Source: a virus. Taken from it: 64,000 nucleotides of DNA. A program made the translations under genes and the position numbers. The notes under the pieces are model-generated. The model saw only the letters and a program-made list of their open reading frames with translations. It made no database searches and was not told the DNA's origin. Location of the stretch: positions 89,400 to 153,399 of the IMG/VR virus record IMGVR_UViG_3300023179_000016; one strand, given 5' to 3'. This document shows, piece by piece, positions 20,714 through 62,216 of the stretch. How positions within the stretch are numbered: the first letter of the stretch is position 1; the number at the start of each line of letters is the position of its first letter.

Positions 20714-21039
20714 GTGTTTACTCTAGATACAACTATATGATTACCAAATTTAATCGGTATCTTGTCGCCTATGTTTAATTTCATAGTGGTGCTATATGTA
20801 TAATTAGATACAGTTGTCGTGGGTGATGTATGTGCGCTATATGTCACGATATATTCGCCGCTCATAGGTACTTTATAATAATAAGTAGCTGGAAATTCCC
20901 CTATTACCTTTAAAGATCTAAGCAATTTAGATAGTCTCCAGGATTCGGTCAAAACTTCCATGCTTCCGGCTGTGACGCCGCCGTGTGTGTCTATTCCATA
21001 TCTACTATCAAAATAGATGGTGGTTCCCTTAGAAATCAT
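20710..21039 (-). CDS. Small protein resembling a stand-alone C1q-like fibre module
   Basis: TIYFD..IDTHG, YKVPMSGEYIV and LNIGDKI echo the distal modules of the adjacent fibre; 4-nt overlaps with both neighbours. Confidence 0.5.
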   Translation of the reverse strand: MISKGTTIYFDSRYGIDTHGGVTAGSMEVLTESWRLSKLLRSLKVIGEFPATYYYKVPMSGEYIVTYSAHTSPTTTVSNYTYSTTMKLNIGDKIPIKFGNHIVVSRVNT

Positions 21040-21911
21040 CGCGATGCTCCTTTTAAATTCTTCATGAAGACGCTAACTAAATATTGCGAATTGTTCTCTT
21101 TTAAGAGATCATTCCAGTCTTTATTAGTCTCTTCTGTGAGAGAATAATGAGTAATACAATTAAAATCTAACATCTTCTTAAGACCTTTTAGGCCAGCCTC
21201 ATCAGAGTCAAATGCAGATATTACTTTGTATCCCTTTTCTTTAAGTTCTTTAAGAGCGCCTGCTTGATGCTCGGATACGCCAGAGCCAGAAGAACAAATG
21301 AACTTCCAGGGATTACGAGAAAAGCCATCATACTTAACATTAAACGCTTGTTGCAGAGATAGCGCGTTAAAATACCCTTCACAAACCACCACAGCTTTTA
21401 CATGGGGCATCATCTTAGATTGATTCCACATGCCAAAAAGTAAACCTAAACGAGTACCTGGTAAAGTAGTAATCTTCCAAGGATCCCCGTCGCTATTTAT
21501 TCTTTCTTCTATAAATCTTATCTGTGCACCGCAGAAATGATTTTCATAATAATACGGAAATACTATACCATCCATGTCTAAATCATAGTACATGTCGCCT
21601 TCTAGATTTAGACCTCTACTCTTTAGATATAATACACCGTTATTTGCCCTAGGATCTGACAAAGGTATGAAGGAACTTGGCCATGCCATTGCTCGGACCT
21701 CGTTGTCAGAATCCGTGGCAATTTCTATCCCTCCCTTAATAAACTCGTGTATGTCTATGCCAGCTGTCTCGCAATATTGCTCTAATGAATAGCCTCTCTG
21801 GCATTTTCCAGCACACCATGTCCACGGCAGATTTGTCTTTTCATCTATATGCCAGTATAAGCAATCGTTCTTTCTTCCACCTTTGCATATATAGCATTTC
21901 TTGCTTAACAT
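21036..21911 (-). CDS. DNA primase (Zn finger + TOPRIM)
   Basis: N-terminal CxxC...CxxxC; YLKSRGL; TOPRIM motifs VVCEGYFNAL and AFDSDEAG; KDWND. Confidence 0.88.
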   Translation of the reverse strand: MLSKKCYICKGGRKNDCLYWHIDEKTNLPWTWCAGKCQRGYSLEQYCETAGIDIHEFIKGGIEIATDSDNEVRAMAWPSSFIPLSDPRANNGVLYLKSRGLNLEGDMYYDLDMDGIVFPYYYENHFCGAQIRFIEERINSDGDPWKITTLPGTRLGLLFGMWNQSKMMPHVKAVVVCEGYFNALSLQQAFNVKYDGFSRNPWKFICSSGSGVSEHQAGALKELKEKGYKVISAFDSDEAGLKGLKKMLDFNCITHYSLTEETNKDWNDLLKENNSQYLVSVFMKNLKGASR

Positions 21912-22171
21912 AAGTCACCTAACACCTCATTTATCCCGGTAATTTCTGTATACCCATAAAACTTAATTAGATTATCTATATTCTTCTGAATGTTTGCATT
22001 TAAATTTTTTATATATGCCGCATAATAATATGCGGCAGCTATCACTGGTGCACCTGACGCTATCGATATAAGCGATATCAACTCTATATCATCTTTAGCA
22101 TAGGGATTATTCTTGCAGACAGATTCTGTTATCGTAGCTAAATGTCTATAACTTGTTAGATCTATTTTCAT
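21905..22171 (-). CDS. Hypothetical protein
   Basis: 88-aa ORF between helicase and primase, in operon. Confidence 0.55.
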   Translation of the reverse strand: MKIDLTSYRHLATITESVCKNNPYAKDDIELISLISIASGAPVIAAAYYYAAYIKNLNANIQKNIDNLIKFYGYTEITGINEVLGDLC

Positions 22172-23185
22172 TTAATCTGGTTGTCCAAGCATGGCTTCAA
22201 GTTTATCTAGCTTCTCTTCTTGCTGCTTTAGCTTACCTCTTTTTTCTCGCTCTACTATCTCCTCCATCGAGATCTTCACATATCGACCCTTCTCGAAACC
22301 GCATACTATTTTGTTGCCGGCTCGACCAAATCGGTCTTTATGAATTATGAATTCAGACGTTTGAGCTTCAAAATTAGGGACCACTTCGATAATAACCGTC
22401 GCAGGTTCCACTATCGCAGTGCAATCTTTTATTCTAGTGTCTATATCTTTTGCACCGCCCTTTTTAGAGACAGAATACAGCTGAGCAAACAGCACTACCG
22501 GCATAGTAGAAGATTTTATATATTGACCCAACCATACTCTTATATCGTTTAGATTGTCATATGCAGTCTTTTTAGAATCTTTAAGAGAATATTTGATGAG
22601 TTGATAGTAGTCAATAAGAACACAGCTATAACTAGCTTCTTTCTTAACCGCTTCTAGTGCCTTTTTGATACCTTCAACTTTAGTAGTTAATCCATCTTTA
22701 TAGGTTACATCTATAACCTTTACATATTTTGTAATTTCTGGAAACAGATAGATTACTCTCTTTTGGTCTTCGATGGGCATATGGCCCTTCTTGTAATCGT
22801 TGAAATTTAATCCTAATTCTAGACATGCAATCCTGAATATGACATCGTGCTCAGATTCTTCATTAGAGAGCACAAGTGTCTTCTTATTCTGCTTCCACAG
22901 TGGATATGTTATGTTAGCAGCAACAGTAGATTTACCTGATCCTGTATAGGCACAGAACAGATATAGATTTTCTCTTGTAAATGGTATTGTAGCGCTAAGA
23001 GGCTCATTGATGAGCGTAATTCGCTCTTTGAGCATCTCGTTGTATCTATGGATGTTTGTCAACATCCCGCGCAATGAGTCTTTATCGCCAAAAGATTCGA
23101 TCTCATCTAAAGAAACTTCTAGATCTGAACCGTCTTTTTTAGATAACTTTAATTGGAGCTCAATTTGCTCCGCTGTCAGTTTCAT
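22172..23185 (-). CDS. DnaB-like (SF4) replicative helicase, C-terminal ATPase domain only
   Basis: Walker A AYTGSGKST, LSNEE, Walker B LIDYYQL, LFAQL, HKDRFG; ATG at 23185 preceded by GGAGA. Confidence 0.85.
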   Translation of the reverse strand: MKLTAEQIELQLKLSKKDGSDLEVSLDEIESFGDKDSLRGMLTNIHRYNEMLKERITLINEPLSATIPFTRENLYLFCAYTGSGKSTVAANITYPLWKQNKKTLVLSNEESEHDVIFRIACLELGLNFNDYKKGHMPIEDQKRVIYLFPEITKYVKVIDVTYKDGLTTKVEGIKKALEAVKKEASYSCVLIDYYQLIKYSLKDSKKTAYDNLNDIRVWLGQYIKSSTMPVVLFAQLYSVSKKGGAKDIDTRIKDCTAIVEPATVIIEVVPNFEAQTSEFIIHKDRFGRAGNKIVCGFEKGRYVKISMEEIVEREKRGKLKQQEEKLDKLEAMLGQPD

Positions 23186-23711
23186 CTGTTTCTCCAAAAA
23201 CGTTTTTTATCATATCTTGTACATCAAGATTATACTGCTGCTGTCGCCATCTCTCTTCTAATTCTGATGTATCTAATACAGGGAACTGGTCTGCATATCG
23301 ACGCTGTGCTCGATATTCTGCAGCACTCATGTTTCCGTGAGAAGTTTCTTTCTTAGAATTTAGTTTAGCCGGAGATTTAAACAGTTCAAGAAATGTCAGT
23401 AGAGCAATATTATTTATGTTTTCGATCCATTGATCGGCAAACTCTTTTTCAGTTTTGTCGAAATTTGGTATGCATCTTTTGAAGGATTTATATGATTTTT
23501 TAATTATGTGGGTGTTTGGATGATGGGCCTTTATCGCCTTCTTAAGAAGCGAATCATATAGGTCGTCGAAGGTTGCGCCAGCCTCTTTCCAAGACTGGAA
23601 CAACTCCTCAAAGTTATTCTTCATATTCTTATGAGAGCGATCCTTAGTTGGAAGGAGGGCTATCCACTCATCTAAGATGATATCTAATAGTTTAGATTTT
23701 TCCATGGCCAA
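23160..23711 (-). CDS. Hypothetical protein in the replication operon (possible loader/initiator)
   Basis: 183-aa ORF overlapping the helicase start; no recognised motif. Confidence 0.55.
   Translation of the reverse strand: MAMEKSKLLDIILDEWIALLPTKDRSHKNMKNNFEELFQSWKEAGATFDDLYDSLLKKAIKAHHPNTHIIKKSYKSFKRCIPNFDKTEKEFADQWIENINNIALLTFLELFKSPAKLNSKKETSHGNMSAAEYRAQRRYADQFPVLDTSELEERWRQQQYNLDVQDMIKNVFGETDETDSGAN
23229..23236 (-). promoter_or_regulatory. Internal -10 box AGTATAAT upstream of helicase
   Basis: + strand attatact; about 44 nt before the helicase ATG. Confidence 0.45.
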
Positions 23712-23913
23712 TCTCAGCGCCTGATTCGATACCGTCTATAATTTCACCAGTTTTTAGGTTAGTTATACGGATCTTAGCGGAGTTATTGACCTTATCTAAG
23801 AAGAGAAGTTCTAACTTATATTCGTCGTTTATTATGAATGGTCTAGCTCTACCCAACCACCAATAAAGACTAGTCTTAAGTTTACCAGCATACTCGTTAA
23901 AGGAATCAGACAT
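23692..23913 (-). CDS. Hypothetical protein
   Basis: First gene of the minus-strand operon; ATG at 23913 with GGAGA upstream. Confidence 0.6.
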   Translation of the reverse strand: MSDSFNEYAGKLKTSLYWWLGRARPFIINDEYKLELLFLDKVNNSAKIRITNLKTGEIIDGIESGAEIGHGKI

Positions 23914-23939
23914 AAAATATTTCTCCAAATTATTGATTT

Positions 23940-23995
23940 ATTATACTGATCGATAAAAATGAGTCAAATAAGGTATCTATTACCTTTAGTAGAAT
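23940..23995. promoter_or_regulatory. Divergent promoter pair: minus-strand AGTATAAT (23947-23940) and plus-strand AGTAGAAT (23988-23995)
   Basis: Both motifs lie in the intergenic gap at the strand switch; the + box is 6 nt before ATG 24002. Confidence 0.65.
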
Positions 23996-24001
23996 ATACT
24001 C

Positions 24002-25399
24002 ATGAAAATATTCGTATATAATGACTCTATAAAAATTGAAAATCCAACTCAAGACACGTTAAATATTATAAAATCGGATCTTGTTTATAGAGACAAATCT
24101 AAAGATTATCAACTCAGAAAAATGGCAAGAAATCCTTGGCATCGTAATTCTGTCTTATACAAAAAATTACAAAAAGAAGTAGAGGGTGTTCTATATAAAG
24201 AACAAGACGATGTCATCGTCGTGTCTTCCGCCTTATTCGATGAATATAAATCCATATTCAATGGGTGTCACGTAGAAGATTTAAGAAAAGAGACAGGGTC
24301 TAAGATAAGCCTTCCGTGGACAAACAAGCCATTTGATCTCAGAGATTATCAACGAGAAGCAGTAGATGTGATGATGGTCTCTAATAGAGGCATAATAAAT
24401 TACGCTACCGGTCTAGGAAAGACATTACTGGCGACGCATCTGATAAAGCAATACAAGAGAAAAGCATTAGTAGTTTGTCCAAGTGAATCTGTCGCGAAGC
24501 AGTTCTACGATATTTTAGAAAAATCATTCGGAAAGACAAGAGTAGGCTTTTACGGAGGCGGGAAGAAAAAGATAGAAGATATAACGGTAGGTATTGCCGC
24601 ATCGATATCATTAAATATCCACGAATTCAAGAATAAAGATTTAGGTCTCGTCATAATAGACGAATGCCATCATACTCCAGCAAATACCTTCATGCAGATA
24701 GCAGAAGGTCTTTCACACGTAGGTAAGATGTTCGGTCTAACTGCAACTGATTATAGATCCGACGGCAAAGATCTCTTGATAAAGGCAGGATGCGGGTCTG
24801 TTCTCGTCAAGAGAGATATAAAATGGGGAATCGAGAATGGATGGCTCGCTGAACCTTATTTTATAGTGAGAGAGGTTCTTACTCACGGCAAGGACTATAA
24901 AGACGATAAATTAAAATCATATAAAGAGCACGTGTTGAACAACAACGAGATGAAATCTAGAATCGAATCGGACGCACGGGCGATGATTAGCGCCGGCAAG
25001 CAGGTACTTATCCTTGTAGATGAAGTAGCCCACGGCAAAGAATTATCTAAGAATTTAGGAATACCGTTTGCGACCGGACAAGATAAGAAGTCGCAAGAAT
25101 ATGTAGATGCTTTGAATAAAAAGAAGATATCTGCATTGGTAGGAACCTCAGGAAAAGTGGGGGAGGGAACAGACACTAAAAATGTGGATGTGCTTATATT
25201 AGCAGATTTCACGGCCTCTAAGGGTCCTGTAATACAGGCAGTAGGTAGAGCTCTTAGAAAGCAAGATGATAAGACTAAGGCCCTAATATTGGACTATATT
25301 CCTTTAGGATCTTCTATGTTGACTAGACATGCCAAAGGCAGAATTAAGTACTACCAAGAGATAACAGACAAGATTAAGATAATACAGCACAATTCATAG
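24002..25399 (+). CDS. SF2 DExH helicase, UvsW-like
   Basis: LRDYQ, ATGLGKT, IIDECHH, GLTAT, GEGTD and QAVGRALR motifs. Confidence 0.92.
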   Translation: MKIFVYNDSIKIENPTQDTLNIIKSDLVYRDKSKDYQLRKMARNPWHRNSVLYKKLQKEVEGVLYKEQDDVIVVSSALFDEYKSIFNGCHVEDLRKETGSKISLPWTNKPFDLRDYQREAVDVMMVSNRGIINYATGLGKTLLATHLIKQYKRKALVVCPSESVAKQFYDILEKSFGKTRVGFYGGGKKKIEDITVGIAASISLNIHEFKNKDLGLVIIDECHHTPANTFMQIAEGLSHVGKMFGLTATDYRSDGKDLLIKAGCGSVLVKRDIKWGIENGWLAEPYFIVREVLTHGKDYKDDKLKSYKEHVLNNNEMKSRIESDARAMISAGKQVLILVDEVAHGKELSKNLGIPFATGQDKKSQEYVDALNKKKISALVGTSGKVGEGTDTKNVDVLILADFTASKGPVIQAVGRALRKQDDKTKALILDYIPLGSSMLTRHAKGRIKYYQEITDKIKIIQHNS

Positions 25400-27061: not shown

Positions 27062-27829
27062 ATGAAATTAGATAATCTATCAAGTCTCTTCAATACCACG
27101 ATAAGAATACAAGAGAGATCGCCTCTCAGCCAAGATGCTATATGGCCAGCTAATATAGAGATCTGTCTGACCCGCGTACCTATAAGAAAGAGAGACGGAT
27201 GGGACCCGGAAGAATTCACTAAATTTGCCAAAAAACTTAAGACAAATATGGTGACAAATGGAGTTGTATTCTTGATATGCTATGCTCCAATAGAGGCCAA
27301 ATGGCGCCCATTTGAGATAGCAAAGATAATGGTCGATGCAGGATTCAATCATGTCGACAATATCGTAATCAAAAAGACCTGGTTTCCTGGAAAAAGATCT
27401 GAGACTAACCTAGTAAACTCTCACGAGTATGTTCTGCATTTTTGCAATGGGAGTGTTTGGAAATTAGATCGTCTTCCTGTTAGACAGTATCTAGACATCG
27501 ACGACGATCTGTCGTGCCCCGGAAACACGTGGGAAGTAGAGACCGGTTCACTAGATGAATCTTATCCAGTAGATCTCGCGGAGCTCCTTATAAGGATGAC
27601 TAATTGCTTGCCAGGTTCAGTTGTCTTTGATCCATATGGAGGGGGAACTGGCGCATTAAAGGCCGCCCTTAAATTAGGACATAGTTTTTTTGGATTTGAG
27701 ACAGACAAGAAGCAATTAAAAAAATACGAAAAGATAGTAGAAAGCTTTAACGACAGAAAGAAAAACAACAAAAAGAGAATTAACACGGTCTTGAAACAAA
27801 AAGACTTAATGGACGATGACGATATTTGA
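27062..27829 (+). CDS. N4/N6 DNA methyltransferase-like protein with degenerate catalytic motif
   Basis: HEYVLHF, GNTW, YPVDLAELLI and PGSVVFDPYGGGTG..AALKLGHSFFGFE match beta-class MTases; the expected DPPY/SPPY site reads TRVP. Confidence 0.75.
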   Translation: MKLDNLSSLFNTTIRIQERSPLSQDAIWPANIEICLTRVPIRKRDGWDPEEFTKFAKKLKTNMVTNGVVFLICYAPIEAKWRPFEIAKIMVDAGFNHVDNIVIKKTWFPGKRSETNLVNSHEYVLHFCNGSVWKLDRLPVRQYLDIDDDLSCPGNTWEVETGSLDESYPVDLAELLIRMTNCLPGSVVFDPYGGGTGALKAALKLGHSFFGFETDKKQLKKYEKIVESFNDRKKNNKKRINTVLKQKDLMDDDDI

Positions 27830-27837
27830 GGTTAAAT

Positions 27838-29565
27838 ATGTTATATGAAAAATCCAAGGCCAAAAGAATACTAGTAGATAAGAATAAAGTTAGGAGCATA
27901 GTTCATTCCACAATAAATGATATGGCGACTATTGTGGGAGCTACTCTAGGTCCAGGTGGAAATCCTGTCTTGATCGAGAGAGACGGTCTATCTCCATTAA
28001 TAACAAAAGATGGGGTCACTGTAGCTAAATCTTTAGGTGTGGACAACGCAGAGGCCAATATCATAGTAGATGCGGCAAAAGAGATATGTCTCAAGACTGC
28101 CAAAGAAGCCGGCGATGGCACAACTACTGCTATTGTTCTAGCTAATAGCATAACTAAGCATGGCTCGCTGTTCTTAGAAAAAAACCCAAAATATAATCCC
28201 CAGCGGATGATAACCGAACTGCAGGATCTTTATAAAACTATAATTGTGCCCTATCTAAAAGATAAGGCTAGAGTAGTAGATAGCAGACACGAATTAATTA
28301 ATGTGGCAAAGATCTCTGCCAATGGCGATCAAAGAATTGCAGAGGCGGCAGTAGATGCTGTTCTAGCAGCAGGGGACGATGGACATGTCTTGATCGAAGA
28401 GGCTCAAGGTGATCAGTTAAGAGTTGAAACTATGGACGGTTTCATAGTGACTACTGGCCTAAGAGATATCGGCTCTGTCGGTCGAGTATTCATAAATGAC
28501 AGGGCAAATCAGCAAGTCAAGATGGATAGAGGGCTTGTCTTTCTATTTGATGGCTCTTTAAACGACTTAAAGATTCCAAGCGCTATACAGCAAGCCGTAG
28601 AGGGAACAGAACTGTACGGTCTACCCATAATGGTTTTTGCTCATGGATTTGCCGATGTCGTAACAGATGCATTTGCTAAAACTACTAAAGGCGGCTATAC
28701 CGTAGTTCCAGTCAAAACTCCTATGAGTGGAATAGCCAACTCTAGATCTTCATTCTTGTTAGATATGGCGGCATATACCGGAGCAACGGTGTTTGATCCA
28801 GGATCTGTAGATAAATTTATAGAAGACGAGGATCATGTAGGATTTGGTTTTTTCAATTCTGCAAAGGTAGGCATGTACGAATCTGTTGTTCAATCTGAAT
28901 CAAATACAGATGTTTTAGATGCCAGAATAAATGAACTTAAGCACCTGATGGAGGTTAGTCCGAGTGATTTTGATAAGATGCATATCAAGGCCTCTATCGG
29001 TAAATTAACAGGCGGAATATCGACTGTGTGGGTCGGCGGTGGATCAGAATTAGAAGCAAGAGAAAAAAGAGATAGAGTAGAGGATGCGGTAGAAGCTGTT
29101 AAATCTGCAATTGCAGAGGGCATAGTTCCAGGTGGATGTGCGGTTCAATTAACGCTATCTTGGATCATAGCGACCCACCCTAATAAAAAACCTTCCTGGG
29201 AAATAATGGCTCTAGCTTTAACAGAACCATTTAATCTATTGCTTAATAATTGCGGTGAAACCGTAGATGAGGTGTGGCCTCATTTAAAAGAGCATATACA
29301 GGATTGCGCCGCAAGCAATCTCTTACCTAAGATGGTATTTGACGCCAATCAGCATACCATAGTTGATCCTATGGTGAGCGGAATTGTAGAACCAGCTAAA
29401 GTATGTAGAGTTACAATTGGTAATGCTTTATCTGTCGCCTCATTATTGGTAACATTAGGTGGTATTGTAGTAGTACCAAGAGATTCTGCACTAGAAAATC
29501 AATTGGCTCTTAGTAAACAGGCCTTTAAAGATATGATGACTGGTGCAGGCGTTGGAGCAGAATAA
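27838..29565 (+). CDS. groEL: Phage-encoded GroEL-like chaperonin
   Basis: TLGPGG, ITKDGVTVAK, AGDGTTTA, EKRDRVEDA, EGIVPGGC; GAGG precedes ATG 27838. Confidence 0.93.
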   Translation: MLYEKSKAKRILVDKNKVRSIVHSTINDMATIVGATLGPGGNPVLIERDGLSPLITKDGVTVAKSLGVDNAEANIIVDAAKEICLKTAKEAGDGTTTAIVLANSITKHGSLFLEKNPKYNPQRMITELQDLYKTIIVPYLKDKARVVDSRHELINVAKISANGDQRIAEAAVDAVLAAGDDGHVLIEEAQGDQLRVETMDGFIVTTGLRDIGSVGRVFINDRANQQVKMDRGLVFLFDGSLNDLKIPSAIQQAVEGTELYGLPIMVFAHGFADVVTDAFAKTTKGGYTVVPVKTPMSGIANSRSSFLLDMAAYTGATVFDPGSVDKFIEDEDHVGFGFFNSAKVGMYESVVQSESNTDVLDARINELKHLMEVSPSDFDKMHIKASIGKLTGGISTVWVGGGSELEAREKRDRVEDAVEAVKSAIAEGIVPGGCAVQLTLSWIIATHPNKKPSWEIMALALTEPFNLLLNNCGETVDEVWPHLKEHIQDCAASNLLPKMVFDANQHTIVDPMVSGIVEPAKVCRVTIGNALSVASLLVTLGGIVVVPRDSALENQLALSKQAFKDMMTGAGVGAE

Positions 29566-47747: not shown

Positions 47748-48521
47748 ATGGCATTGATTATTCTTGAAGGATTAGATCGCACTGGCAAATCAACAGTGGC
47801 AAGATATTACGAAAGTCTTGGATATCATTTAATCCACATGTCGGCTCCTTCTAAAGGCACAACAGCAGATCAATATCTTCAAGATATCACTGATCTATTG
47901 TCCTCTGCTTCCACAAGAGACATAGTATTAGATAGATCTCATTATGGCGAATTAATATGGTCATCGGTCTATGGTAGATCTTCACTTTTGACAGAAGAAG
48001 ATATAGAATCTCTAGCGGAGATAGAAACAGCCGTAGGCGTCAAAAGAATACTTATGGTTGATCCAAACGTTGAAGCACATTGGAATAGATGTGTTGAAAA
48101 TAATGAACCGTTGACTAAAGCCCAATTCATCAAGGCAAGATCCCTTTATTATCAAATGGCCCAAAAGTTTAACTTTGAAAGTCAAAATCTGCCGCAATTC
48201 TTAAGACTAAATCCGGATGCAGAATCTATTTCTAAAATAGACAGCGGCGACAACGATATTGTTACAACAGATGAGACAAAAAAATCTAAAACACCAGAAC
48301 AATTAAAACTAGAAAAGGCAAACGCAATAAACGATATTCTGTCTAAAAGAATTTTAAAGCAAAAAGGCGACACATACGAAGATTTAGAGCGCGATATTAG
48401 AAACTTTTTAAATGCAAAATTAGGTAAACTTTTTGGCGACACGTCTGACTTAGGTTTTACAAGTGAAGAAATTAAATTTTACAAGACAATGTATAAAAAG
48501 GCAACTAAAAAAGGGGAATGA
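47748..48521 (+). CDS. P-loop (d)NMP kinase, thymidylate-kinase-like
   Basis: IILEGLDRTGKST, VLDRSHYGE. Confidence 0.8.
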   Translation: MALIILEGLDRTGKSTVARYYESLGYHLIHMSAPSKGTTADQYLQDITDLLSSASTRDIVLDRSHYGELIWSSVYGRSSLLTEEDIESLAEIETAVGVKRILMVDPNVEAHWNRCVENNEPLTKAQFIKARSLYYQMAQKFNFESQNLPQFLRLNPDAESISKIDSGDNDIVTTDETKKSKTPEQLKLEKANAINDILSKRILKQKGDTYEDLERDIRNFLNAKLGKLFGDTSDLGFTSEEIKFYKTMYKKATKKGE

Positions 48522-49093
48522 AGATGAAGGGATTTAAACTGCACGAACAACCGTCCAAAAAAACTCAAATTAAACAACTTGAGACAGAATTAAAAAATTC
48601 TCAAGTTGCCAATAGAATGTCTCAACTAATGATTCAACAGTTGGTCAACAGCGTAAAATCTATTGGAGATGATTTAAATACTGCTGTGAGTAGATTGTAC
48701 GAGTTGCAGTATAAATACGATGCATTGAGACAGTATTTAAATGCAGACGTAAATAACTTAAATGATATTGCAAATCAACTTCGCCTAAAAGATTTTCAAG
48801 AGGCAGCAGAGAGAGCAGATCTTCAAGAAGAATTGCAGACGGTAGAGACTGCCACAGAAGATAGCACTGTAGTACTGACCTCTACTGCCAAAGATGAAAA
48901 TAACGTCGATAAGGGCATATTTAGATCCAGAGTTAAACTGTCTGAGTCAGGTTCTCCAGATCTCATCAGCAAACTCTTAGGTAAAAAAGTTGGCGATAAG
49001 GTCTTAGTTAAGTTAAATAACTTAGATCATACCGTAGAACTTCTTTCTGTAAAGAATGGGCCAACTAAAGCTGATCCGGAGACTACACACTAA
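48518..49093 (+). CDS. Coiled-coil protein with GreA/GreB-C-terminal-like (FKBP-fold) domain
   Basis: STVVL...SPDLISKLLGKKVGDKVLVKL...VELLSV resembles the GreA C-domain SPLxxALxGKxxGDxVxV...EILxV. Confidence 0.5.
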   Translation: MKMKGFKLHEQPSKKTQIKQLETELKNSQVANRMSQLMIQQLVNSVKSIGDDLNTAVSRLYELQYKYDALRQYLNADVNNLNDIANQLRLKDFQEAAERADLQEELQTVETATEDSTVVLTSTAKDENNVDKGIFRSRVKLSESGSPDLISKLLGKKVGDKVLVKLNNLDHTVELLSVKNGPTKADPETTH

Positions 49094-49491
49094 TGAAGGG
49101 TTGTAAAATGGATTCTAGGTGCCCTAGAAATCTTAAAGAGACACCAGATGACTGGTGTCCTCTTGCTGTTTTAAGGCTAAAAGCTATAAGAAATGCTGGC
49201 AGGGAACTAACAGAATCTGAAGAAGCTAAACTACCAGGTTGTCCGTGGGCTATTGATCATCAATTGGCCAATTATTGTTTTTTTAAATATATTAACGAAT
49301 TTTCTAATGGTAAACCTGCTACGGATATAGAGTTAGCAGCCCTGCTAAACATTTCTCCTGAATCCGTTAAAAGAATAGAAAGATCTGGTTTAAATAAATT
49401 AAAATACAGCAATTCGTTCTCGAATATGAAGACGCAAGACGGTCCTATAGTGGAAGAAAAAGACGACAGTACCTATAAAGTACATAAGTAA
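49093..49491 (+). CDS. Cys-rich protein with sigma-70 region 4.2-like HTH
   Basis: ATDIELAALLNISPESVKRIERSGLNKLK versus RpoD TLEEVGxxFxVTRERIRQIEAKALRKLR; N-terminal CP..WCP..GCPW..YCF cluster. Confidence 0.65.
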   Translation: MKGCKMDSRCPRNLKETPDDWCPLAVLRLKAIRNAGRELTESEEAKLPGCPWAIDHQLANYCFFKYINEFSNGKPATDIELAALLNISPESVKRIERSGLNKLKYSNSFSNMKTQDGPIVEEKDDSTYKVHK

Positions 49492-52878: not shown

Positions 52879-54330
52879 ATGATGAACGATGCAGTTAATC
52901 AAATTTTACAGGGACTTGACCAGGGTCTGGTATCTCAGGCCGACGTCGAAGCCCTAAATAAGGCAATCACTGCCGGTTATGGTGGCGCAGGTAAACCTAC
53001 CGATCTAACCTACGGCGGTGTTCTTCAGGCTGAATCTCTCGAGGCAACCCTCAAGAGCGTCACCTTCGACATGAAGAATCTAAAAATGTGGCCAGCAATA
53101 TCAGTCGATAAGGCCTACAATCTCTTCGAGCAGTACAATCGCTTAATCAGCTACGGTTCTGATTCTGCGCCTTACCTCGGTGAAGGTGGAGCTCCTATCG
53201 AAGAAGATTCGACATATGTTCGTGACGGACAGAAGATCGTGTTCTTCGGAACTCGTCGTAAGGTTTCGCACCAGATGACGCTGGTCCGTACCACGGTCGG
53301 TGATGTCGTCGCTCAACAGGCAAAAGAAGGTACTATGCATCTTCTGAAAAACGTTGAACGCGAAATGTACTGGGGTCATGCCCACTTCATTGGTCGTCTC
53401 GACGGCGCTAACGACGGCAGCGATGCTGCTCTCCCAGCCAACAGCATCGCCATGAGCGGCCTTCTAAAGCAGCTCAAAAAAGGCGATACTGATGTTCTTC
53501 AGCGCTCTGGCGACTTTGAAGGATACGGTGATGCTCAGTCCATCGTTCAAGATCTCGGCGGAGCAGTTATTGCTCAAGACGATCTAGAGCGTCTTGCAGT
53601 TATCGCGCTTGAAAACTTCGGTTCTCCAAGCGAACTGCATATCGAGCCTGCTGCCCTGTCGTCATTCGTCAAGCAGTTCTATCCTCAGTTCCGTTCTGCT
53701 CCAGGTCTCTCAAATGAGACTGTCGGTTACAGCGTGAACAAGATGACTACCACTGCGGGCGTCATCGACTTCAAACCTAACCTCTTCCTCCGTCCTCGTG
53801 CAGGCGCTCGCGCACTCGCTGTCAGTGCACTCGCTCCTTCGCTCGGATCTCTCGGTGTGGCAACTGCTGCAACGGGTTCTGGTTCTGCTCTCGGTGCAGG
53901 CGTTTACCAAGTTAAGGTTACGCTCGTCAACGACGCAGGCGAATCAATTCCACTTCAGGCTGCTGCAGTTACTCTTACTGCGGGTCAGAAGATTCAGCTC
54001 ACTGTTACTAACATGCCCGCTGGTGTTAAGCACATGAAAGCTTATATCTCTGCACCAGGCGGCGCAGTTGGAACCGAAAAATTCGCAGGCAATCTTGCAA
54101 ACGCTGGCAATACTACCTATGTACTTGCTGGTCGTAAGCAGGCTGGTCTCGGCGAAGCATTCCTCCTCGACATGAGCGCTGAATGCATGAAGTTCAAACA
54201 ACTTGCACCTCTCAGCAAGATTAACTTCGCAATCGTCACCACTGCACTTGAATTTGCGATCGTCATGTACGGAGCTCTCTTCGTATATACTCCTCGCTTC
54301 AACTGTGTGATGGAAAACGTTGGCAAGTAA
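52879..54330 (+). CDS. Major capsid protein, Herelleviridae (SPO1/Twort)-like
   Basis: KAITAGYG N-arm, LQAESLE..LK, EQYNR, LAPLSKINFA..FAIVMYGAL..P; strong high-expression codon bias; terminator downstream. Confidence 0.88.
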   Translation: MMNDAVNQILQGLDQGLVSQADVEALNKAITAGYGGAGKPTDLTYGGVLQAESLEATLKSVTFDMKNLKMWPAISVDKAYNLFEQYNRLISYGSDSAPYLGEGGAPIEEDSTYVRDGQKIVFFGTRRKVSHQMTLVRTTVGDVVAQQAKEGTMHLLKNVEREMYWGHAHFIGRLDGANDGSDAALPANSIAMSGLLKQLKKGDTDVLQRSGDFEGYGDAQSIVQDLGGAVIAQDDLERLAVIALENFGSPSELHIEPAALSSFVKQFYPQFRSAPGLSNETVGYSVNKMTTTAGVIDFKPNLFLRPRAGARALAVSALAPSLGSLGVATAATGSGSALGAGVYQVKVTLVNDAGESIPLQAAAVTLTAGQKIQLTVTNMPAGVKHMKAYISAPGGAVGTEKFAGNLANAGNTTYVLAGRKQAGLGEAFLLDMSAECMKFKQLAPLSKINFAIVTTALEFAIVMYGALFVYTPRFNCVMENVGK

Positions 54331-56626: not shown

Positions 56627-56697
56627 GTTTTCCCGAAAAACCTATTCGGTTTTATCGCCTTGCGCTGTATAATGCTTATATAGTGTAAGGAGATAAT

Positions 56698-57006
56698 ATG
56701 CGCACTTCCAATCTAGCCAACCAAGCCATTAGACAGGCAGAAGTCGGCCATGTCTGGGTAGAACAGCTCACAAACGCAGCTGGTACCCTCGAAATCCAAA
56801 AATACGCCACATTTAGAGTTAGAGCTGCTGCAGCAGTTACCGTCACAATAGATGGTGTCTTAGCTGCCACAATGACATCTGGAGAAATAATTCTATTTAA
56901 TTCGGGAAGCGGTATTAATGATGCTGCTGGCAATCTTGTACCCACTGTAACTGTAGTTATTACCGGTAATTGCTATCTTCAAGTTGCTCGCGATAAAGAT
57001 AGATAA
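56698..57006 (+). CDS. Small putative virion protein
   Basis: Beta-rich Ala/Thr/Val protein; TGTATAAT 56666-56673 and SD AAGGAG. Confidence 0.5.
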   Translation: MRTSNLANQAIRQAEVGHVWVEQLTNAAGTLEIQKYATFRVRAAAAVTVTIDGVLAATMTSGEIILFNSGSGINDAAGNLVPTVTVVITGNCYLQVARDKDR

Positions 57007-57024: not shown

Positions 57025-58257
57025 ATGAAAACATCTAGTTTTAAAAAAATTCTATTAAGAAAAGTCGAAGGTGATCTTAAACTAACTACTCTTATATCTT
57101 CTTGCACTGGAGAGTTTTTAACTAACAAGATAATAGAGTCATTAGAAAAGATGGCTGCACCTGGAAAAAATACAGGTAGAAATGCCAATTCTGCGATTAC
57201 AAATTTTGCACAAAGACTTTCCAATAGAGATGTTGAAATGATGAGAGATGCCTTAGGACATCATGTTTCTGCTCATAAAGCAGAATTAAAAGCCGGAAAT
57301 AGACAAGCAGCGGATGCACATTTAAATAAGATAATCCCATTAATGCATTTAATGGCTAGAACTGCAGCACATTCTGGTGGAAAACTAGCTTTAGATTATG
57401 TTCCGCTAGAGCCATGGGAAACCAATTATACGGGTTTAGAGAGAAGACCAGAAACTGGAAAATTAAAAGAAGGAACTAAGGGATTAAGGAGACGACCCAG
57501 TAAAACCGATAGAATCTCAAACCCTAGAGGGGTTCCAGATTTTAGATATTTAGAGATGAAACCGCACCCAGGTCATTCAGATGTCAATACTTCTCCGCAT
57601 AAAGAAACCGCCTATCCGTTTGAGGAAATTCAGTTGGGTTCGCCCAGTGCTGTTGATTCTAAACAGGCATATCTACCTATTTCAAATATTCAAGCTACAG
57701 GTACGTTTAAACCTCATCCATTTGACGATCATCCTATACATAAATTAGCAGATTTAGAACAAGATAAAATTTCTAACGATACTATGAATAATTTTGGTAG
57801 CGCATTAGATAACTGGGTAAACCATGATTCATCTAAAAAATGGGGTGAATCCATTAAAAATCTATACGCGTCTAATCCAGAGTCTTATAAAAACAGAGGT
57901 AAACAAAAACCATCACATCATTTTGAAGGTATGAGTATTCTAGATCATCCGAAAGAGGTGGCAGAATATATATCTCAGAACCCAACATCTTCTGTTGAGT
58001 CAACTAAACTTAAAGAACCTAAATCAACTAGTTCAATTTTAACAGATGATCATATAAATGATCTACCGCCAGAATTGCAAAATCTAGGTAGACAGTTGCT
58101 TCAGGGACAAACTACCTCATCACGCATTACGCCATCACAGACCGCAATGTCCGATGAAGACATTGAAAAAGCATTTATAGGTGGAACACCAGAAGATCAG
58201 AAAAGACTTTGGCCACAATTTAAGCAGATTCAAGAAAAGAAACATGGAGCAAGATAA
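57025..58257 (+). CDS. Hypothetical protein, possible internal head protein
   Basis: 410 aa, His-rich, in the head module; LEKM motif near the N-terminus. Confidence 0.5.
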   Translation: MKTSSFKKILLRKVEGDLKLTTLISSCTGEFLTNKIIESLEKMAAPGKNTGRNANSAITNFAQRLSNRDVEMMRDALGHHVSAHKAELKAGNRQAADAHLNKIIPLMHLMARTAAHSGGKLALDYVPLEPWETNYTGLERRPETGKLKEGTKGLRRRPSKTDRISNPRGVPDFRYLEMKPHPGHSDVNTSPHKETAYPFEEIQLGSPSAVDSKQAYLPISNIQATGTFKPHPFDDHPIHKLADLEQDKISNDTMNNFGSALDNWVNHDSSKKWGESIKNLYASNPESYKNRGKQKPSHHFEGMSILDHPKEVAEYISQNPTSSVESTKLKEPKSTSSILTDDHINDLPPELQNLGRQLLQGQTTSSRITPSQTAMSDEDIEKAFIGGTPEDQKRLWPQFKQIQEKKHGAR

Positions 58258-60182
58258 TGCCAGGTTTTGTTAGGTCTAAAAAAGACGAAGTTAAATGGAA
58301 TAAGGCTAAAAAATCAGTAAGTGAATCTAAGTCAAAAAAAGAAGAATCTTTTTCTGATAGAGATTGGGCTTTAGTTAATCATATTTACCATAATATGAGT
58401 AAATCTAATTCTATTGAGCTGTCTGAAATAGACAATATAGTGAATCATTTATATAATACTAAAAAGTTATTGAAAGCTAGAGATTACGAAGACAAAGACT
58501 ATGACCCAGAAGATATAAGTGGACTATCAATAAGAGACGAATCGGAAGATCCATATGCAGATGACTTATCTTCTTATGACAACGATGAATTATTAAATGA
58601 AGATGAAAATATAGAACCTGAAGACGATGAATCGCGAGATGTATATGGACAGATGACTGGAAGACCATCTGAATCAGAAAATGAAGAAGAACCCCAACAG
58701 GAAATTAAACCGGCAAAAAATATAGATCAAATCAAGTCGTCACCGGAATCTTCAATAGAGTCTCAAACTATCAACATGGACCCTGAAGACTACGAGAAAC
58801 TGCCATCAGAAATCAAAAAAAAATATAAATTAGCTGTTTCTGAAGAAAAACCAAAAATAATACCTAAATCCACCAGCGAAACTCAAATTGAACCGACTTC
58901 AAGATCGGCTGTTATTACAAGAAAACAAGGCCAACCTTCATCTAACCCATCCTTAGCATCTTTAAAGGATGAACCCTCGTTTTCCGAAAAAGAAGAAATG
59001 TTTGAACCAACGGTAGAAGAACTTAACGCTCTAAGAGAACACACTAGACCATGGGAACAGAGAGCCAGAGACACAATAAAATTACAAGCTGATCCCAGAA
59101 AAAATCCTGTTTTGGCTAAGGAAGGTGTTTTATTAGAAGCTACGCGTAACGCCCATAAGGATAGAAATCAAGCATATAGCGAATTGACTAATTCCGCTGC
59201 ATATAAAAACGCGGATCCAATTGCTCAAATGGAATTAGATGAAAAGTTTCATAGAGATTGGATAAGCGGCAATCCAGATCATACTGCAAATGCAATTAGA
59301 GCTCATGCTGATGCACATCAAATAGGCGATGAAAAGAAAAAAATATTTGATGCTCATAAAGAAGCTCAAATAAAAACTATCTTAGAGGGCGGAGCTATGC
59401 CAGAAGAAACATTTTCCACCGAAGCTGGCTTACAGCATGCAGGCGGCGCTAAGAGCGAAGAAGGCACGGCAGGATCCATGGTATCTGATCCATATTCTTC
59501 TTTTGCGATGGGCAACAAACAATTCGTTAAAGAATATGCAAAAAATTATACAGATAAAAATAAAAAAGCCTCTTCAACTGAAGATTTAGAAAACTATGAT
59601 ATAGGTGATAAAAAAGATATAAATAGAATATTAGGACCAGCTGCCGCAAAAAGTCCTTTAGTAGAAGACTTTTTTAAAAAATACAATAGACTAATAGCGA
59701 TAAATGCAAAAAATGCAATAAAGGCACTAGGTTTGCAAGAAAACCATCCTAACGTGGATATAGGATTACTTCATGAGGCGGGCATGCATGGTTTAATGCA
59801 AGCAGTTAATTCTTATGATCCCTCTAAAGGTGCTCAATTTAAAACATGGGCCTCTAGAGTGATAAAAGGTCTTCAGATGACTGCCTTAAATAATCAACAT
59901 GAAATACCACAGAGTATTAGAAGAGCAGCCAAAGATTTCAATAAAAAAAGAAGTGCGCAGCCTCAAATGTCCGCACCCACTCTCACACCTACTTCCGCAT
60001 CGACCACAACTGCGACTCCTACGTCCACTCCAGCATCCGCAAGTACCCCATCGGTTCAAAAACCAGCGGCGCCTCATGTAGTCATATCAGAATCCAAACA
60101 TCCAAATGCTCCCAAAATGGCAGAAGCAATAAAGAGAATAGACGCTCAAAGAAATGTCATAACAAGAAAGAGATCTGAATAG
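58257..60182 (+). CDS. Acidic multi-domain head-associated protein containing a FliA-like sigma region-2 domain
   Basis: LHEAGMHGLMQAVNSYDPSKGAQFKTWASRVIKG...IPQSIRRAAKD aligns with the sigma28 pattern LLQAGxIGLLxAVERYDxxxGxxFxTYAxxRIRG...VPRSVRR; no region 4 follows. Confidence 0.75.
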   Translation: MPGFVRSKKDEVKWNKAKKSVSESKSKKEESFSDRDWALVNHIYHNMSKSNSIELSEIDNIVNHLYNTKKLLKARDYEDKDYDPEDISGLSIRDESEDPYADDLSSYDNDELLNEDENIEPEDDESRDVYGQMTGRPSESENEEEPQQEIKPAKNIDQIKSSPESSIESQTINMDPEDYEKLPSEIKKKYKLAVSEEKPKIIPKSTSETQIEPTSRSAVITRKQGQPSSNPSLASLKDEPSFSEKEEMFEPTVEELNALREHTRPWEQRARDTIKLQADPRKNPVLAKEGVLLEATRNAHKDRNQAYSELTNSAAYKNADPIAQMELDEKFHRDWISGNPDHTANAIRAHADAHQIGDEKKKIFDAHKEAQIKTILEGGAMPEETFSTEAGLQHAGGAKSEEGTAGSMVSDPYSSFAMGNKQFVKEYAKNYTDKNKKASSTEDLENYDIGDKKDINRILGPAAAKSPLVEDFFKKYNRLIAINAKNAIKALGLQENHPNVDIGLLHEAGMHGLMQAVNSYDPSKGAQFKTWASRVIKGLQMTALNNQHEIPQSIRRAAKDFNKKRSAQPQMSAPTLTPTSASTTTATPTSTPASASTPSVQKPAAPHVVISESKHPNAPKMAEAIKRIDAQRNVITRKRSE

Positions 60183-60183
60183 T

Positions 60184-61020
60184 ATGGCAATAGATAAAAC
60201 GCCCACAACATCTCCATTTCCGGCATTTGAGATAGAGCAAGAACCAGGAGTCACTAGGTATAGTAGTTTACCTACTCCACAATCTATGCGTCAAACTGTA
60301 TTATTTGGTCTACCATTAAAATCATTCATGACTGGACAAGAGGTTACGGATGACAGCATACAGCACTATATAGATCAAGCTATATCAGAAGTAGAGCATA
60401 TGCTCGATCTCTATATAGTTCCTGTATTATTTAGAGAAAGGCATGATTATAGCAGACATCAGTTTTTTTGGAGTTTTGGTTATTTCAAGGTAAATCATGG
60501 GCCAATACTCGATGTATCTAAGTTTCAGTTGACGTTTAACAATGGACAGATTGGGCCTGCCACACCTCCACTCGTGGATATACCGCTCGAATTCATACAT
60601 GTCCAGCCTCAAGAACAGACGATACAATTGGTTCCAGCTCAAGGTGTCACTATATCTGGACTTATTGTCAGTGTTTATTCAGGACTAGGGTTCCATGCAT
60701 TTAACAATCAGGCTCTATCGCATTGGCCTGGTGCTATTCTTATAGAATATAGAGCAGGATTCGAGGATGGAAGGATACCTGCATTATTGGCTGGACTTAT
60801 AGAAAATATGGCAGCATACAAGATGTTGTCGACCATGGGCCCCATATTATTTCCTCAAAACTCTGTTAGCATAGGTATCGATGGTGTTTCGCAGAGCGTA
60901 GGAACTCTTGGTCCGGGTTTTTTACAGAACCGTCTGGCTGATTTAGAAAAAATCATACAGCAGCAGACAGATTCTGCTAGAGGCTATTACCAAAAAAAGT
61001 TCATGATCGATTATATTTAA
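60184..61020 (+). CDS. Head-tail adaptor / neck protein
   Basis: IDQAISEVEHMLD, ERHDY, IEYRAGF..IP, SVSIGIDGVSQS typical of head-completion proteins. Confidence 0.65.
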   Translation: MAIDKTPTTSPFPAFEIEQEPGVTRYSSLPTPQSMRQTVLFGLPLKSFMTGQEVTDDSIQHYIDQAISEVEHMLDLYIVPVLFRERHDYSRHQFFWSFGYFKVNHGPILDVSKFQLTFNNGQIGPATPPLVDIPLEFIHVQPQEQTIQLVPAQGVTISGLIVSVYSGLGFHAFNNQALSHWPGAILIEYRAGFEDGRIPALLAGLIENMAAYKMLSTMGPILFPQNSVSIGIDGVSQSVGTLGPGFLQNRLADLEKIIQQQTDSARGYYQKKFMIDYI

Positions 61021-61103: not shown

Positions 61104-62216
61104 ATGATTAAGCATAAAGATGCAATAAAGGGTGGATTGGCAGATAAGAAAAAACCATCAGACTTTGATTCTAAATCATTAAAACAGGGTCAAAAAGTAG
61201 AATTAGAGCATACAAAAAATAAAGCTATAGCTAAAGAAATAGCTATGGATCATTTAACCGAAGACCCTAAATACTATAAAAAATTAAAAACAATAGAAAA
61301 AAATATGATTGAAATTGTACCAGACGGCAAGCAAGAAATAGTTGAAGGTAAAGAGCCATTAAAAAAAGAACCAAAGAAAAAAAATATGCGCAATGCAGAT
61401 AATGCATTAGACGCACGCTGGTCTAAACTTAAAAAGGGACTAAATAATTTAAAATCTATAATGAATTTAGAAGAGGCATCCAAAGACGACGAGTCTGAGC
61501 AGACTCCACAAGAGCAGACTCCACAAGAGCAGACTCCACAAGAGCAGACTCCACAAGAGCAGACTCCACAAGAGCAGACTCCACAAGAGCAGACTCCACA
61601 AGAGCAGACTGAAGTAGCATCTTTAACCCCTAGACCAGAAGAGTCAGAGCAAGTCTCACAAGGACAGCCTGTAGAAGAACAAACCGCACAAGAACAGGTT
61701 GGAGAAACCGAACAAACTACACAGGAACAGTCTGAAGAGTTAAATGTAGACGAAGAAGAACAAAAAATAATAGAATCTTTAAAAGAGCACGGCTATTCTG
61801 ATCCAGAGATATCTTATATAGTAAGAGGTCATCATTCTCCGCATCATGATGAAATTAAAACTGCAAAGGCTGCCGCTGCCGCTGCAATGTCCGATATAGA
61901 TATAGATCACTCTAAAAGAATAGGTGATTTAGAATTTAAGCATAAAGTTAGGCAAATGGATCTGGAACATGACCATGCAAAAAGAATGAAAGAACTGGAA
62001 TATAAAGACGCTACCACTAACGTTTCTGATCCGGACCATAAGAAAAAACTTTCTCAACTTGAATTAGAAGAAAAACTATTAGAGATACAAAGACGCAAGA
62101 AAGAAATCGAATTGGAACTTTCTTTTAAAGAAAAAGAACTAGAACAAAAACTTAAACATGCAGAAGAAGTCAATAAGAAAAAATTAACTTCTATTAACTC
62201 AAAGTCTGGTGAATAG
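61104..62216 (+). CDS. DUF5661-like domain protein with EQTPQ repeats and coiled coil
   Basis: GGLAD...GQKVELEHT...AKEIAMDHLTEDPKYYKKL motif. Confidence 0.7.
   Translation: MIKHKDAIKGGLADKKKPSDFDSKSLKQGQKVELEHTKNKAIAKEIAMDHLTEDPKYYKKLKTIEKNMIEIVPDGKQEIVEGKEPLKKEPKKKNMRNADNALDARWSKLKKGLNNLKSIMNLEEASKDDESEQTPQEQTPQEQTPQEQTPQEQTPQEQTPQEQTPQEQTEVASLTPRPEESEQVSQGQPVEEQTAQEQVGETEQTTQEQSEELNVDEEEQKIIESLKEHGYSDPEISYIVRGHHSPHHDEIKTAKAAAAAAMSDIDIDHSKRIGDLEFKHKVRQMDLEHDHAKRMKELEYKDATTNVSDPDHKKKLSQLELEEKLLEIQRRKKEIELELSFKEKELEQKLKHAEEVNKKKLTSINSKSGE
61497..61610 (+). repeat. Perfect 15-bp tandem repeat GAGCAGACTCCACAA, 7 copies plus a partial copy (EQTPQ)
   Basis: Read directly from sequence. Confidence 0.95.

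Follow-up and report, generated by a model that had tools for sequence, protein, structure and literature searches.

What is a sigma region 2 domain doing inside a protein that is encoded between the capsid and neck genes of a large phage? The question is raised by an open reading frame (ORF) of 641 aa at 58257..60182 on the plus strand of a 64,000-nt stretch of viral DNA, called the window here (positions 89,400 to 153,399 of IMG/VR record IMGVR_UViG_3300023179_000016). The exact coordinates of the ORF were verified. The window is the final 64 kb of the 153,399-bp record, which is estimated to be 91% complete. Sequence comparison indicates that the 641-aa protein, the target of this analysis, is a chimera. 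In it, a conserved protein of the head-neck operon is interrupted, after its helical domain and ahead of its C-terminal tail, by a sigma region 2 (sigma2) module and a Pro/Thr/Ala linker. We consider it moderately probable that the sigma2 module of this chimera serves as a specificity subunit that steers the host RNA polymerase (RNAP) to promoters of the type CCGA-N3-TATA.

The sigma2 module and its carrier protein

The target contains a genuine sigma-70 region 2 domain at residues 466-567, with FliA and WhiG as its nearest relatives. Pfam Sigma70_r2 matched residues 508-544 with 27.3 bits (29.1 bits in the genome scan), above the gathering cut-off of 24 bits, and this was the sole Sigma70_r2 match of the genome. 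The NCBIfam model FliA_WhiG (TIGR02479) matched residues 495-567 with an E-value of 6e-11 (model positions 19-91 of 224). E. coli FliA (PDB 6pmi_F) was aligned at E 2e-6 from region 2.1 through the VPRSVRR helix. When the profile of 120 homologues was searched against the PDB, WhiG (E 7e-10) and FliA (E 1e-8) were found. An earlier reading of the letters alone, here the sequence-only reading, had described a FliA-like region 2 up to VPRSVRR, with a Sigma70_r2 search as its proposed check; the Pfam match and the NCBIfam and PDB 6pmi alignments agree with that description. The FliA label is a nearest-neighbour statement only, as judged from the alignments, and the sigma28 specificity residues are not kept. 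The TIGR02479 score of 42.5 bits against a curated cut-off of 189.6 places the target outside the FliA/WhiG subfamily. About 20 further sigma models matched more weakly, all of them in region 2 and far below their full-length cut-offs.

No match to Sigma70_r3, Sigma70_r4 or r4_2 was found anywhere in the target in Pfam and NCBIfam searches of the protein. The target, with no region 4 in the same polypeptide, is not a complete sigma-70 factor. The module consists of regions 2.1-2.4 and the first helix of region 3, about 100 aa, without sigma3.1 or sigma4. Its most conserved block among the 120 homologues is helix 2.2 (LHEAGMHGL; at least 94% conserved), which is predicted to bind the beta-prime clamp helices. 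F528, A532 and A543 are invariant in the same alignment, R555 and K559 are kept in at least 118 of the 120, and G538 is also among the conserved sigma2 positions. The -11A stacking position is aromatic (H/W/Y) in 120 of 120, and the predicted scaffold for the melted -10 strand is nearly invariant throughout the family alignment.

The family is large and uncultured. More than 148 homologues were collected, and the exhaustive profile search gave 66 clusters (50% identity) at E <= 1e-30. A tblastn search of the target against 50,697 phage records gave no match and no cultured relative, no PHROG family was found for it, and the family profile had no match in Myxococcus phage Mx1. Longer forms of the target were not found in a word-index search, a search type that also missed the shorter split forms described below. 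Such word-index blanks are false negatives, because the exhaustive profile search recovered those shorter forms.

An AlphaFold2 model of the target was built from the 120 homologues. Together with the alignments, the model and its predicted local distance difference test (pLDDT) values divide the protein as follows.

58257..58496, plus strand, residues 1-80: N-terminal helices (residues 8-79 in the model), closing with a conserved LxKAR block
58497..59003, plus strand, residues 81-249: disordered acidic linker with DP/DWL short motifs, pLDDT below 50
59004..59651, plus strand, residues 250-465: carrier helical domain, pLDDT above 90 for residues 250-376
59652..59957, plus strand, residues 466-567: inserted sigma2 module, pLDDT above 90 for residues 467-547
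59958..60071, plus strand, residues 568-605: disordered Pro/Thr/Ala linker with low pLDDT and low family occupancy
60072..60182, plus strand, residues 606-641 and stop codon: basic C-terminal helix (residues 618-640 in the model), family motif HP..D-R-L-K-R-V

The confident segments of the model are the helices of residues 8-79, the helical domain (253-376), sigma2 (467-547), a helix at 552-567 and a helix at 618-640. The sigma2 part was compared by VIA-align with sigma28, WhiG, SigB, SigI, sigmaS and sigma70, giving Z values of 9-9.7 and root mean square deviations of about 2-3 A (1.9-3.0 A over 78-94 residues for sigma28, WhiG, SigB, sigmaS and sigma70). Regions 2.1-2.4 are matched by residues 466-549, and the helices of the sigma2 fold are all present in the model. 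In the same comparison, 12-16 residues of helix 248-276 superpose on the region 1.2 helix of sigmaS, sigma70 and SigB. When the whole model was searched against the PDB with Foldseek, every top match was a sigma70, with marginal E-values (3e-3). A BFVD search matched only uncharacterised proteins of uncultured phages.

Outside sigma2, conservation is uneven. Target residues 1-38 are found in about half of the homologues, and L71, K73, A74 and R75 are kept in at least 103 of 120. The long acidic linker noted in the sequence-only reading has a net charge of -26 and a pI of 4.2; its acidic-aromatic motifs are conserved and are also common to orthologues that lack sigma2. The Pro/Thr/Ala low complexity noted after sigma2 corresponds to residues 568-605, where 31 of 38 residues are P, T, A or S. 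The VITRK motif does occur twice, as had been observed. The repeat is a coincidence, because the middle copy sits in a segment peculiar to this protein that is gapped in 119 of 120 homologues.

The exhaustive profile search also returned proteins of 320-460 aa that match the N-terminal part and the helical domain only, and complete proteins of 118-133 aa that match the sigma2 part only. These split forms belong to a sister clade (genomes G006-G008), with a major capsid protein (MCP) 68-74% identical to that of the window phage, whose own genome (G000) belongs with G001-G005 to the fused clade. In nine sister loci, the slot between the gene of a 410-aa protein and the neck adaptor gene, with the same overlaps, is occupied by a 350-445-aa orthologue. 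This orthologue matches the hidden Markov model (HMM) of the helical domain at E 1e-11 to 1e-33 and has no sigma2, and no sigma2 ORF was found within 8 kb of the slot. Among 23 sigma2-less relatives, the helical-domain HMM matched 23, the N-terminal HMM 16 and the sigma2 HMM none, and the C-tail HMM matched the extreme C-terminus of nine (E 2.5e-6 to 8e-3). The basic C-terminal tail of the target is thus common to sigma2-less orthologues.

Because sigma2-less orthologues keep the N-terminal part, the helical domain and the C-tail, the sigma2 module and the Pro/Thr/Ala linker are internal to a conserved protein, and because the same helical domain is present in those orthologues, the carrier domain is autonomous. 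The sequence-only reading had called sigma2 embedded; this is borne out more strongly than it was put, by orthologues without sigma2 and by free sigma2 proteins in the sister clade. Residues 250-465 were also considered as region 1.2 with an insertion, like the non-conserved region, of a single sigma factor, and this was ruled out by the sigma2-less orthologues. In the MCP tree, a single branch with support 100/99 divides the 19 rows with a fused form from the 9 sigma2-less rows. One event separates the two forms, its direction (insertion or excision) being unset without an outgroup.

Free mini-sigma2 ORFs of 123-159 aa (118-159 aa when all are included) were found in all three complete sister genomes and matched the sigma2 HMM at E 4e-19 to 1e-7. 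Their genes lie in the accessory-gene arm, beside orthologues of G000 genes at 37.5-38.5 kb but in the opposite orientation, with a (G)GTATAAT box just upstream. An RpoD-like sigma ORF of about 228-236 aa (loci L037-L039; Sigma70_r2 84 bits, regions 1.2-3 and the start of 4) is also present in these sister genomes and is absent from the genome of the window. The whole sigma repertoire therefore differs between the clades. Locus searches with single proteins returned only an ordinary full-length FliA for P0243 (L026) and nothing for P0179.

This fused-versus-split pattern could also mean that the sigma factor has two subunits. The carrier would then be a transcription protein with parts like regions 1.1 and 1.2 that binds the mini-sigma2 in trans in the sister clade, a reading we regard as rather unlikely. 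Agreeing with it, AlphaFold2 places carrier helix 248-276 on sigma2 at the region 1.2 site, and the acidic segment stands directly ahead of that helix, as in primary sigmas. Nevertheless, no sigma region or RNAP-binding family could be recognised as similar to the carrier, and the region 1.2 match covers about 12-16 residues of one helix. Under the same rather unlikely account, the fusion would merely join two partners and the head-neck operon position would be historical; the constant association of the gene with the neck adaptor in the two clades is then without explanation.

Promoter boxes and the residues that may read them

Pfam searches for T7-type, Rpb1 and Rpb2 polymerases were empty, and no DFDGD-type motif was found in any frame. 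Since no phage RNAP is detectable, any sigma activity must act on the host core enzyme. The candidate promoters show a strong strand preference. The sequence CCGA-N3-TATA occurs 19 times on the minus strand and not at all on the plus strand of the window phage's genome, where about three per strand are expected by chance. In a logo of the 19 boxes, positions upstream of -2 carry no information and no -35 element is seen. Sixteen of the boxes lie in the left arm (15-66 kb of the genome, outside the window), 16-54 nt before a Shine-Dalgarno (SD) sequence and ATG, and the genes behind them are small ORFs of unassigned function. The three right-arm boxes, including the one in the window, are within chance expectation. 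The genome of the window is the richest in CCGA-N3-TATA, with 19 against 2-9 in its relatives. K-mer enrichment was too insensitive for promoter discovery, as the known box was not recovered.

24067..24077, minus strand: the only CCGA-N3-TATA box in the window, probably a chance occurrence

This box falls within the divergent helicase gene, with 149 nt between it and the first leftward ORF downstream. A DnaB-like helicase and a Toprim primase are the products of the leftward block at 20354-23928 (minus strand), the only such block of the right arm. The box at 24077 was considered as the promoter of this DnaB/primase block and rejected, being at chance level, and the intergenic region carries AGTATAAT on the minus strand instead. 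With AGTATAAT in the intergenic region 23929-24001, the block seems to use the TATAAT class and not the CCGA class.

The box differs between the clades by one base. For the T variant, CCGA-N3-TATA, the ratio of arm strand to other strand is 43:2 in the fused clade and 4:7 in the sister clade. For the G variant, CCGA-N3-GATA, it is 12:5 in the fused clade, near background, and 14:3 in the sister clade. The arm-strand difference is significant by Fisher's test (p = 3e-5), although in effect it is one phylogenetic contrast. The sister-clade arm promoters read AA-CCGA-NN-CGATA(T), a CCGA-N2-CGATA core before SD and ATG without a -35. In both clades the boxes lie on the anti-structural strand, in front of the accessory-gene arm. 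A near-invariant ACTGCTACGCC box precedes some of the sister CCGA-NN-CGATA boxes (G007:C1:122500-142800 and G006:C1:100900-134900; loci L045-L050), with spacing like that in G000. Being present upstream in both clades, ACTGCTACGCC is older than the clade split and independent of the -12 base change.

The protein changes at the corresponding residues. Contacts in the open complex of P. aeruginosa sigma28 (PMC12784957) were mapped onto the alignments of the target and its homologues. In that complex, Tyr76 stacks the flipped -11A and Asp87 reads -12G of GCCGATAA (PMC12784957).

Tyr76 equivalent: Tyr in 9 of 9 mini-sigma2 proteins; His in 117 of 120 fused proteins (Trp in the target)
Asp87 equivalent (residue 542): Asp in 7 of 9 mini-sigma2 proteins, including those of G006 and G007; Thr in 114 of 120 fused proteins

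This suggests that, at the base before 'ATA' (-12), Asp pairs with G and Thr with T, the following A being -11. The joint change of Asp/G to Thr/T between the clades ties the sigma2 domain to the CCGA-class promoters. The mini-sigma2 proteins keep the equivalents of both Tyr76 and Asp87, and the core of their boxes, CGATA, matches the sigma28 -10 element GCCGATAA. The fused clade, unlike sigma28, has Thr for Asp87 and His or Trp for Tyr76, and the Arg97 equivalent (552) is variable, so that the specificity residues for GCCGATAA are not in place.

As a mechanism, the sigma2 module would bind the host core RNAP in place of the host sigma, and would recognise and melt CCGA-N3-TATA by flipping the A after the T as -11. 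The CCGA at -19 to -16 is perhaps read by the basic region-3 helix; helix 552-567, with R555 and K559, is the candidate reader. The first helix of the carrier's helical domain is likely to pack against sigma2 in the manner of region 1.2, and a role similar to that of region 1.1 is possible for the acidic linker. The outcome would be activation of the leftward arm, with its roughly 100 small genes. The protein would be produced together with the neck adaptor from a -10-only promoter of the GGTATAAT type, and might act in the producing cell only or also through loading into capsids.

The sequence-only reading had offered two roles, a -10-only sigma or a decoy that occupies the sigma-binding surface of core RNAP and shuts off the host. 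The first is supported by the sigma2 architecture without sigma4, the conserved core-binding helix and DNA scaffold, the strand-specific boxes without -35 and the covariation. The second is disfavoured. A module that only occupied the sigma-binding clamp helices, with no DNA reading, would agree with helix 2.2 as the most conserved block and with the missing sigma4, and the acidic linker could mimic DNA. However, regions 2.3, 2.4 and 3.0 are as conserved as 2.2, and the specificity residue co-varies with the promoter base. A pure decoy would not need conserved, promoter-covarying DNA-contact residues, and the decoy is therefore judged very unlikely.

A second class of boxes raises another alternative. 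Boxes without a -35 and with the consensus GGTATAAT (TATAAT type) stand before many rightward genes, and one precedes the operon of the target, 20-28 nt upstream of the SD and ATG of its 102-aa first gene in 16 of 18 related loci. The module could accordingly be a late sigma of the T4 gp55 kind that reads the -10-only GGTATAAT boxes of the rightward genes, its own operon included. With T4 gp55 as a precedent, this alternative also draws on the predicted region-1.2-like helix, which would provide a pocket for -7T, a base that never varies in the GGTATAAT class. It is nevertheless improbable: TATAAT with G at -14 is also read by the host primary sigma, the strand bias of the class is only mild (32:17), and the same box is used in both clades despite different sigma2 contact residues. 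Under this account the CCGA boxes would be read by something else and the rightward genes would be those of replication and structure. We give little weight to this part as well, since the Asp/Thr-G/T covariation with the CCGA boxes would be unexplained.

Several points weigh against steering to the CCGA-N3-TATA promoters, which remains the reading we favour. The covariation is a single contrast of two clades, phylogenetically one observation. Sigma28 Arg97, the reader of the extended -10, is not conserved, which leaves the reading of CCGA unexplained. The -7 pocket implied by the predicted region-1.2-like helix fits GGTATAAT better than the CCGA class, in which -7 is not conserved. The target itself departs from the clade consensus at predicted DNA contacts (S527Q, H531W, N534R, K535V and D548H), and in sister genome G008 both types of box are scarce. 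It is also odd to find a sigma for early-looking genes in a neck operon, unless the operon is early or the protein is delivered.

The operon and the question of packaging

The window encodes a terminase, a portal, a prohead protease, a DnaE-type polymerase, GroEL and other genes. The major capsid gene at 52879-54330 encodes an SPO1-like MCP (32-34% identical), and the nearest cultured relative by terminase and adaptor is Myxococcus phage Mx1. A WhiB search for a clue to the host gave no match, and no tRNA was found in the window. The following features surround the target gene.

56632..56649, plus strand: hairpin CCCGAA...TTCGG followed by TTTT, terminator-like, ahead of the operon promoter
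56666..56673, plus strand: operon promoter box TGTATAAT (family consensus GGTATAAT, no conserved -35)
56698..57006, plus strand: first operon gene, 102 aa, conserved in all related loci
57025..58257, plus strand: His/Pro-rich partner gene, 410 aa, whose stop overlaps the target ATG (TAATG)
60184..61020, plus strand: neck/adaptor gene, 278 aa, beginning 1 nt past the target stop

Similar hairpins stand at the equivalent place in relatives. The 102-aa gene had no family match in Pfam and PHROG searches. The adaptor gene is identified by PDB 8q01 ('Adaptor protein / Neck protein', E 8e-9), by PHROG 772 and by homologues in Herelleviridae and Mx1. The synteny and overlap of partner and target are kept in 22 fused-clade and 9 sister-clade loci, and Mx1 and Herelleviridae lack this pair of 410-aa and 641-aa genes. 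In the 410-aa partner, many His, Pro and Trp residues are invariant (HPGH, PHPFD.HPIH, WETNY), and its AlphaFold2 model (pLDDT 78.7) had no fold match in the PDB. It may represent a new metal-binding fold.

The gene order is constant in the 22 loci: protease, 133 aa, scaffold-like, MCP, a variable interval, dTMP kinase, exonuclease, 186 aa, 102 aa, 410 aa, target, adaptor, DUF5661 and 341 aa. The location between capsid and neck genes, as given in the sequence-only reading, is correct in that the target lies between MCP and adaptor, but the genes of a dTMP kinase, a polymerase exonuclease and the 186-aa protein come in between, and the operon is served by a separate promoter.

Position and adaptor coupling are invariant in 31 of 31 loci of both clades, which places the target with the structural genes. 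This bears on the proposal that the protein is a packaged virion cargo. The carrier would in that case be an internal capsid or ejection protein, and the chimera, made late, loaded in the head and ejected with the DNA, would arm a few host polymerases for the CCGA promoters. We hold this as a tentative possibility; it is compatible with the favoured explanation and adds a delivery step to it. About 100 accessory genes might in that case, with similarly limited likelihood, be fired before any phage protein synthesis, and such an injected sigma would have arisen when, in an ancestor, a free mini-sigma became part of an ejected head-neck protein, which is likewise possible but doubtful.

In line with delivery, the gene keeps its place in the head-neck operon, where it overlaps its upstream neighbour and adjoins the adaptor gene, and the cognate boxes precede small early-looking accessory genes on the opposite strand, for which the fused clade has no other sigma gene to start them. 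The target also evolves fast (34-48% identity across related loci, against 75-89% for the MCP) and contains long disordered segments, as is often the case in ejected proteins. Conversely, the same region holds genes of non-structural enzymes, and the operon promoter is of the same TATAAT type as those of the replication genes, so that expression need not be strictly late. In the sister clade, mini-sigma2 is encoded by an ordinary gene of the arm that has a TATAAT box to itself, so packaging is not required for the system to operate. PHROG, Foldseek and BFVD searches revealed no resemblance of the carrier to known internal or ejection proteins, and the family has no cultured relative.

The proposed maturation sites, MSKS (residues 47-50) and LLKA (71-74), are present in the target and lie inside conserved blocks, LxKAR and [ML]xK[AS] being conserved near the N-terminus of the homologues, which is in line with delivery. 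The frequency of the pattern is at chance, however, with four occurrences of [LIVMF]xK[ASG] against 2.7 +/- 1.6 expected, and enrichment of a Lys-type cleavage code was rejected.

The sigma factor Gp10 of Salmonella phage Arash was found in particle preparations alongside the phage's own polymerase (PMC10585845). No sigma domain is listed in a published survey of polyvalent proteins that are injected (PMC5512222). Gp10 is a full-length sigma of the RpoS type that accompanies the phage's own beta/beta-prime subunits, whereas no polymerase was found in the window phage. Together with T4 Alt and the N4 virion RNAP, Gp10 is a precedent for late-encoded transcription proteins that are carried in the particle and act when infection begins, but Alt and the N4 polymerase are enzymes and not sigma modules.

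Other genes of the window are listed as side observations. The product of the gene past the adaptor (61104-62216, plus strand) combines a DUF5661 domain (E 6e-11) with seven tandem TPQEQ repeats and with long, charged segments that resemble coiled coils; the equivalent position in Mx1 holds a 1480-aa 'NUDIX hydrolase', and no mention of DUF5661 was found in the literature searched. A giant ORF of 2748 aa in the tail region (5636-13882, plus strand) had no PHROG match and weak SH3-like Pfam matches (E1_FCCH, FeoA). A GroEL-type chaperonin is encoded at 27826-29565 on the plus strand (PHROG 5725, E 7e-94).

Relation to known sigma factors

Two-subunit sigma factors are known from SigO-RsoA of Bacillus subtilis, in which the sigma2-like and sigma4-like halves are separate proteins. 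Both systems divide sigma functions between two polypeptides, but the partner of the mini-sigma2 would be an unrelated helical protein. In the window, a 132-aa ORF between portal and protease (49093-49491, plus strand) scored 20.9-22.1 bits against Sigma70_r4, below the cut-off of 24.1, with a helix-turn-helix like that of region 4.2, and it is kept at the same site in relatives with 51-61% identity. This weakly sigma4-like protein could be a flap-binding partner of the sigma2 module. It is coupled to a 191-aa ORF (48518-49093, plus strand) with a weak match to the GreA/GreB C-terminal domain (E 0.003, below cut-off) and a marginal Peptidase_M16 match.

The closest functional comparison is T4 gp55, a phage sigma consisting of sigma2 only, which acts at -10-only promoters (PMC7892883, PMC2988020). 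Like the target module, gp55 has only sigma region 2 and uses -10-like promoters without a -35, and it binds the beta-prime clamp helices of the host RNAP. The candidate promoters of the target are likewise without a -35 and appear to be linked to the protein by covariation. The two differ in form and in promoter. T4 gp55 is a free 185-aa protein of a middle gene that is activated by gp33 and the sliding clamp, whereas the target module is free at 118-159 aa or lies inside a head-neck operon protein of 500-670 aa; no clamp-binding motif was evident in the C-tail of the target. The promoter is CCGA-N3-TATA, as against TATAAATA for gp55. In the PDB profile search gp55 did not appear at E <= 10, nor was it among the top structural matches, although a distant kinship may exist.

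By sequence, the nearest relatives of the module are FliA and WhiG (PDB 6pmi, 9wsm and 6pfv; E 6e-11 to 7e-10), with the alignment running into the 'PRSVR' helix. In contrast to these, regions 3.1, 3.2 and 4 are missing from the target, which implies no reading of a -35 (TAAA) and no FlgM surface. The situation also resembles that of SPO1, from the capsid-related Herelleviridae, where a large myovirus without its own RNAP uses reduced sigmas, gp28 and gp34, to redirect the host core; gp34 lacks a whole domain of sigmaA (PMC13401047). The SPO1 sigmas are free proteins from the regulatory/replication region, and the target is encoded in a head-neck operon.

Truncated phage sigmas are thus already known from T4 gp55 and SPO1 gp34. 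The very small free form, the fused and split pair and the residue-base rule are undescribed as far as found in the literature. The analysis points to a widespread group of uncultured myophages of 150-200 kb that uses a sigma module of about 100-130 residues, smaller than gp55 and apparently derived from FliA/WhiG. The natural pair of fused and split forms points to a physical or functional partnership between module and carrier. The pairing of Asp with G and Thr with T at -12 is a directly testable specificity rule, and the promoter class may be used for annotating such genomes. If the chimera is indeed packaged, this phage would offer a clear example of the delivery of a sigma module that serves the polymerase of the host.

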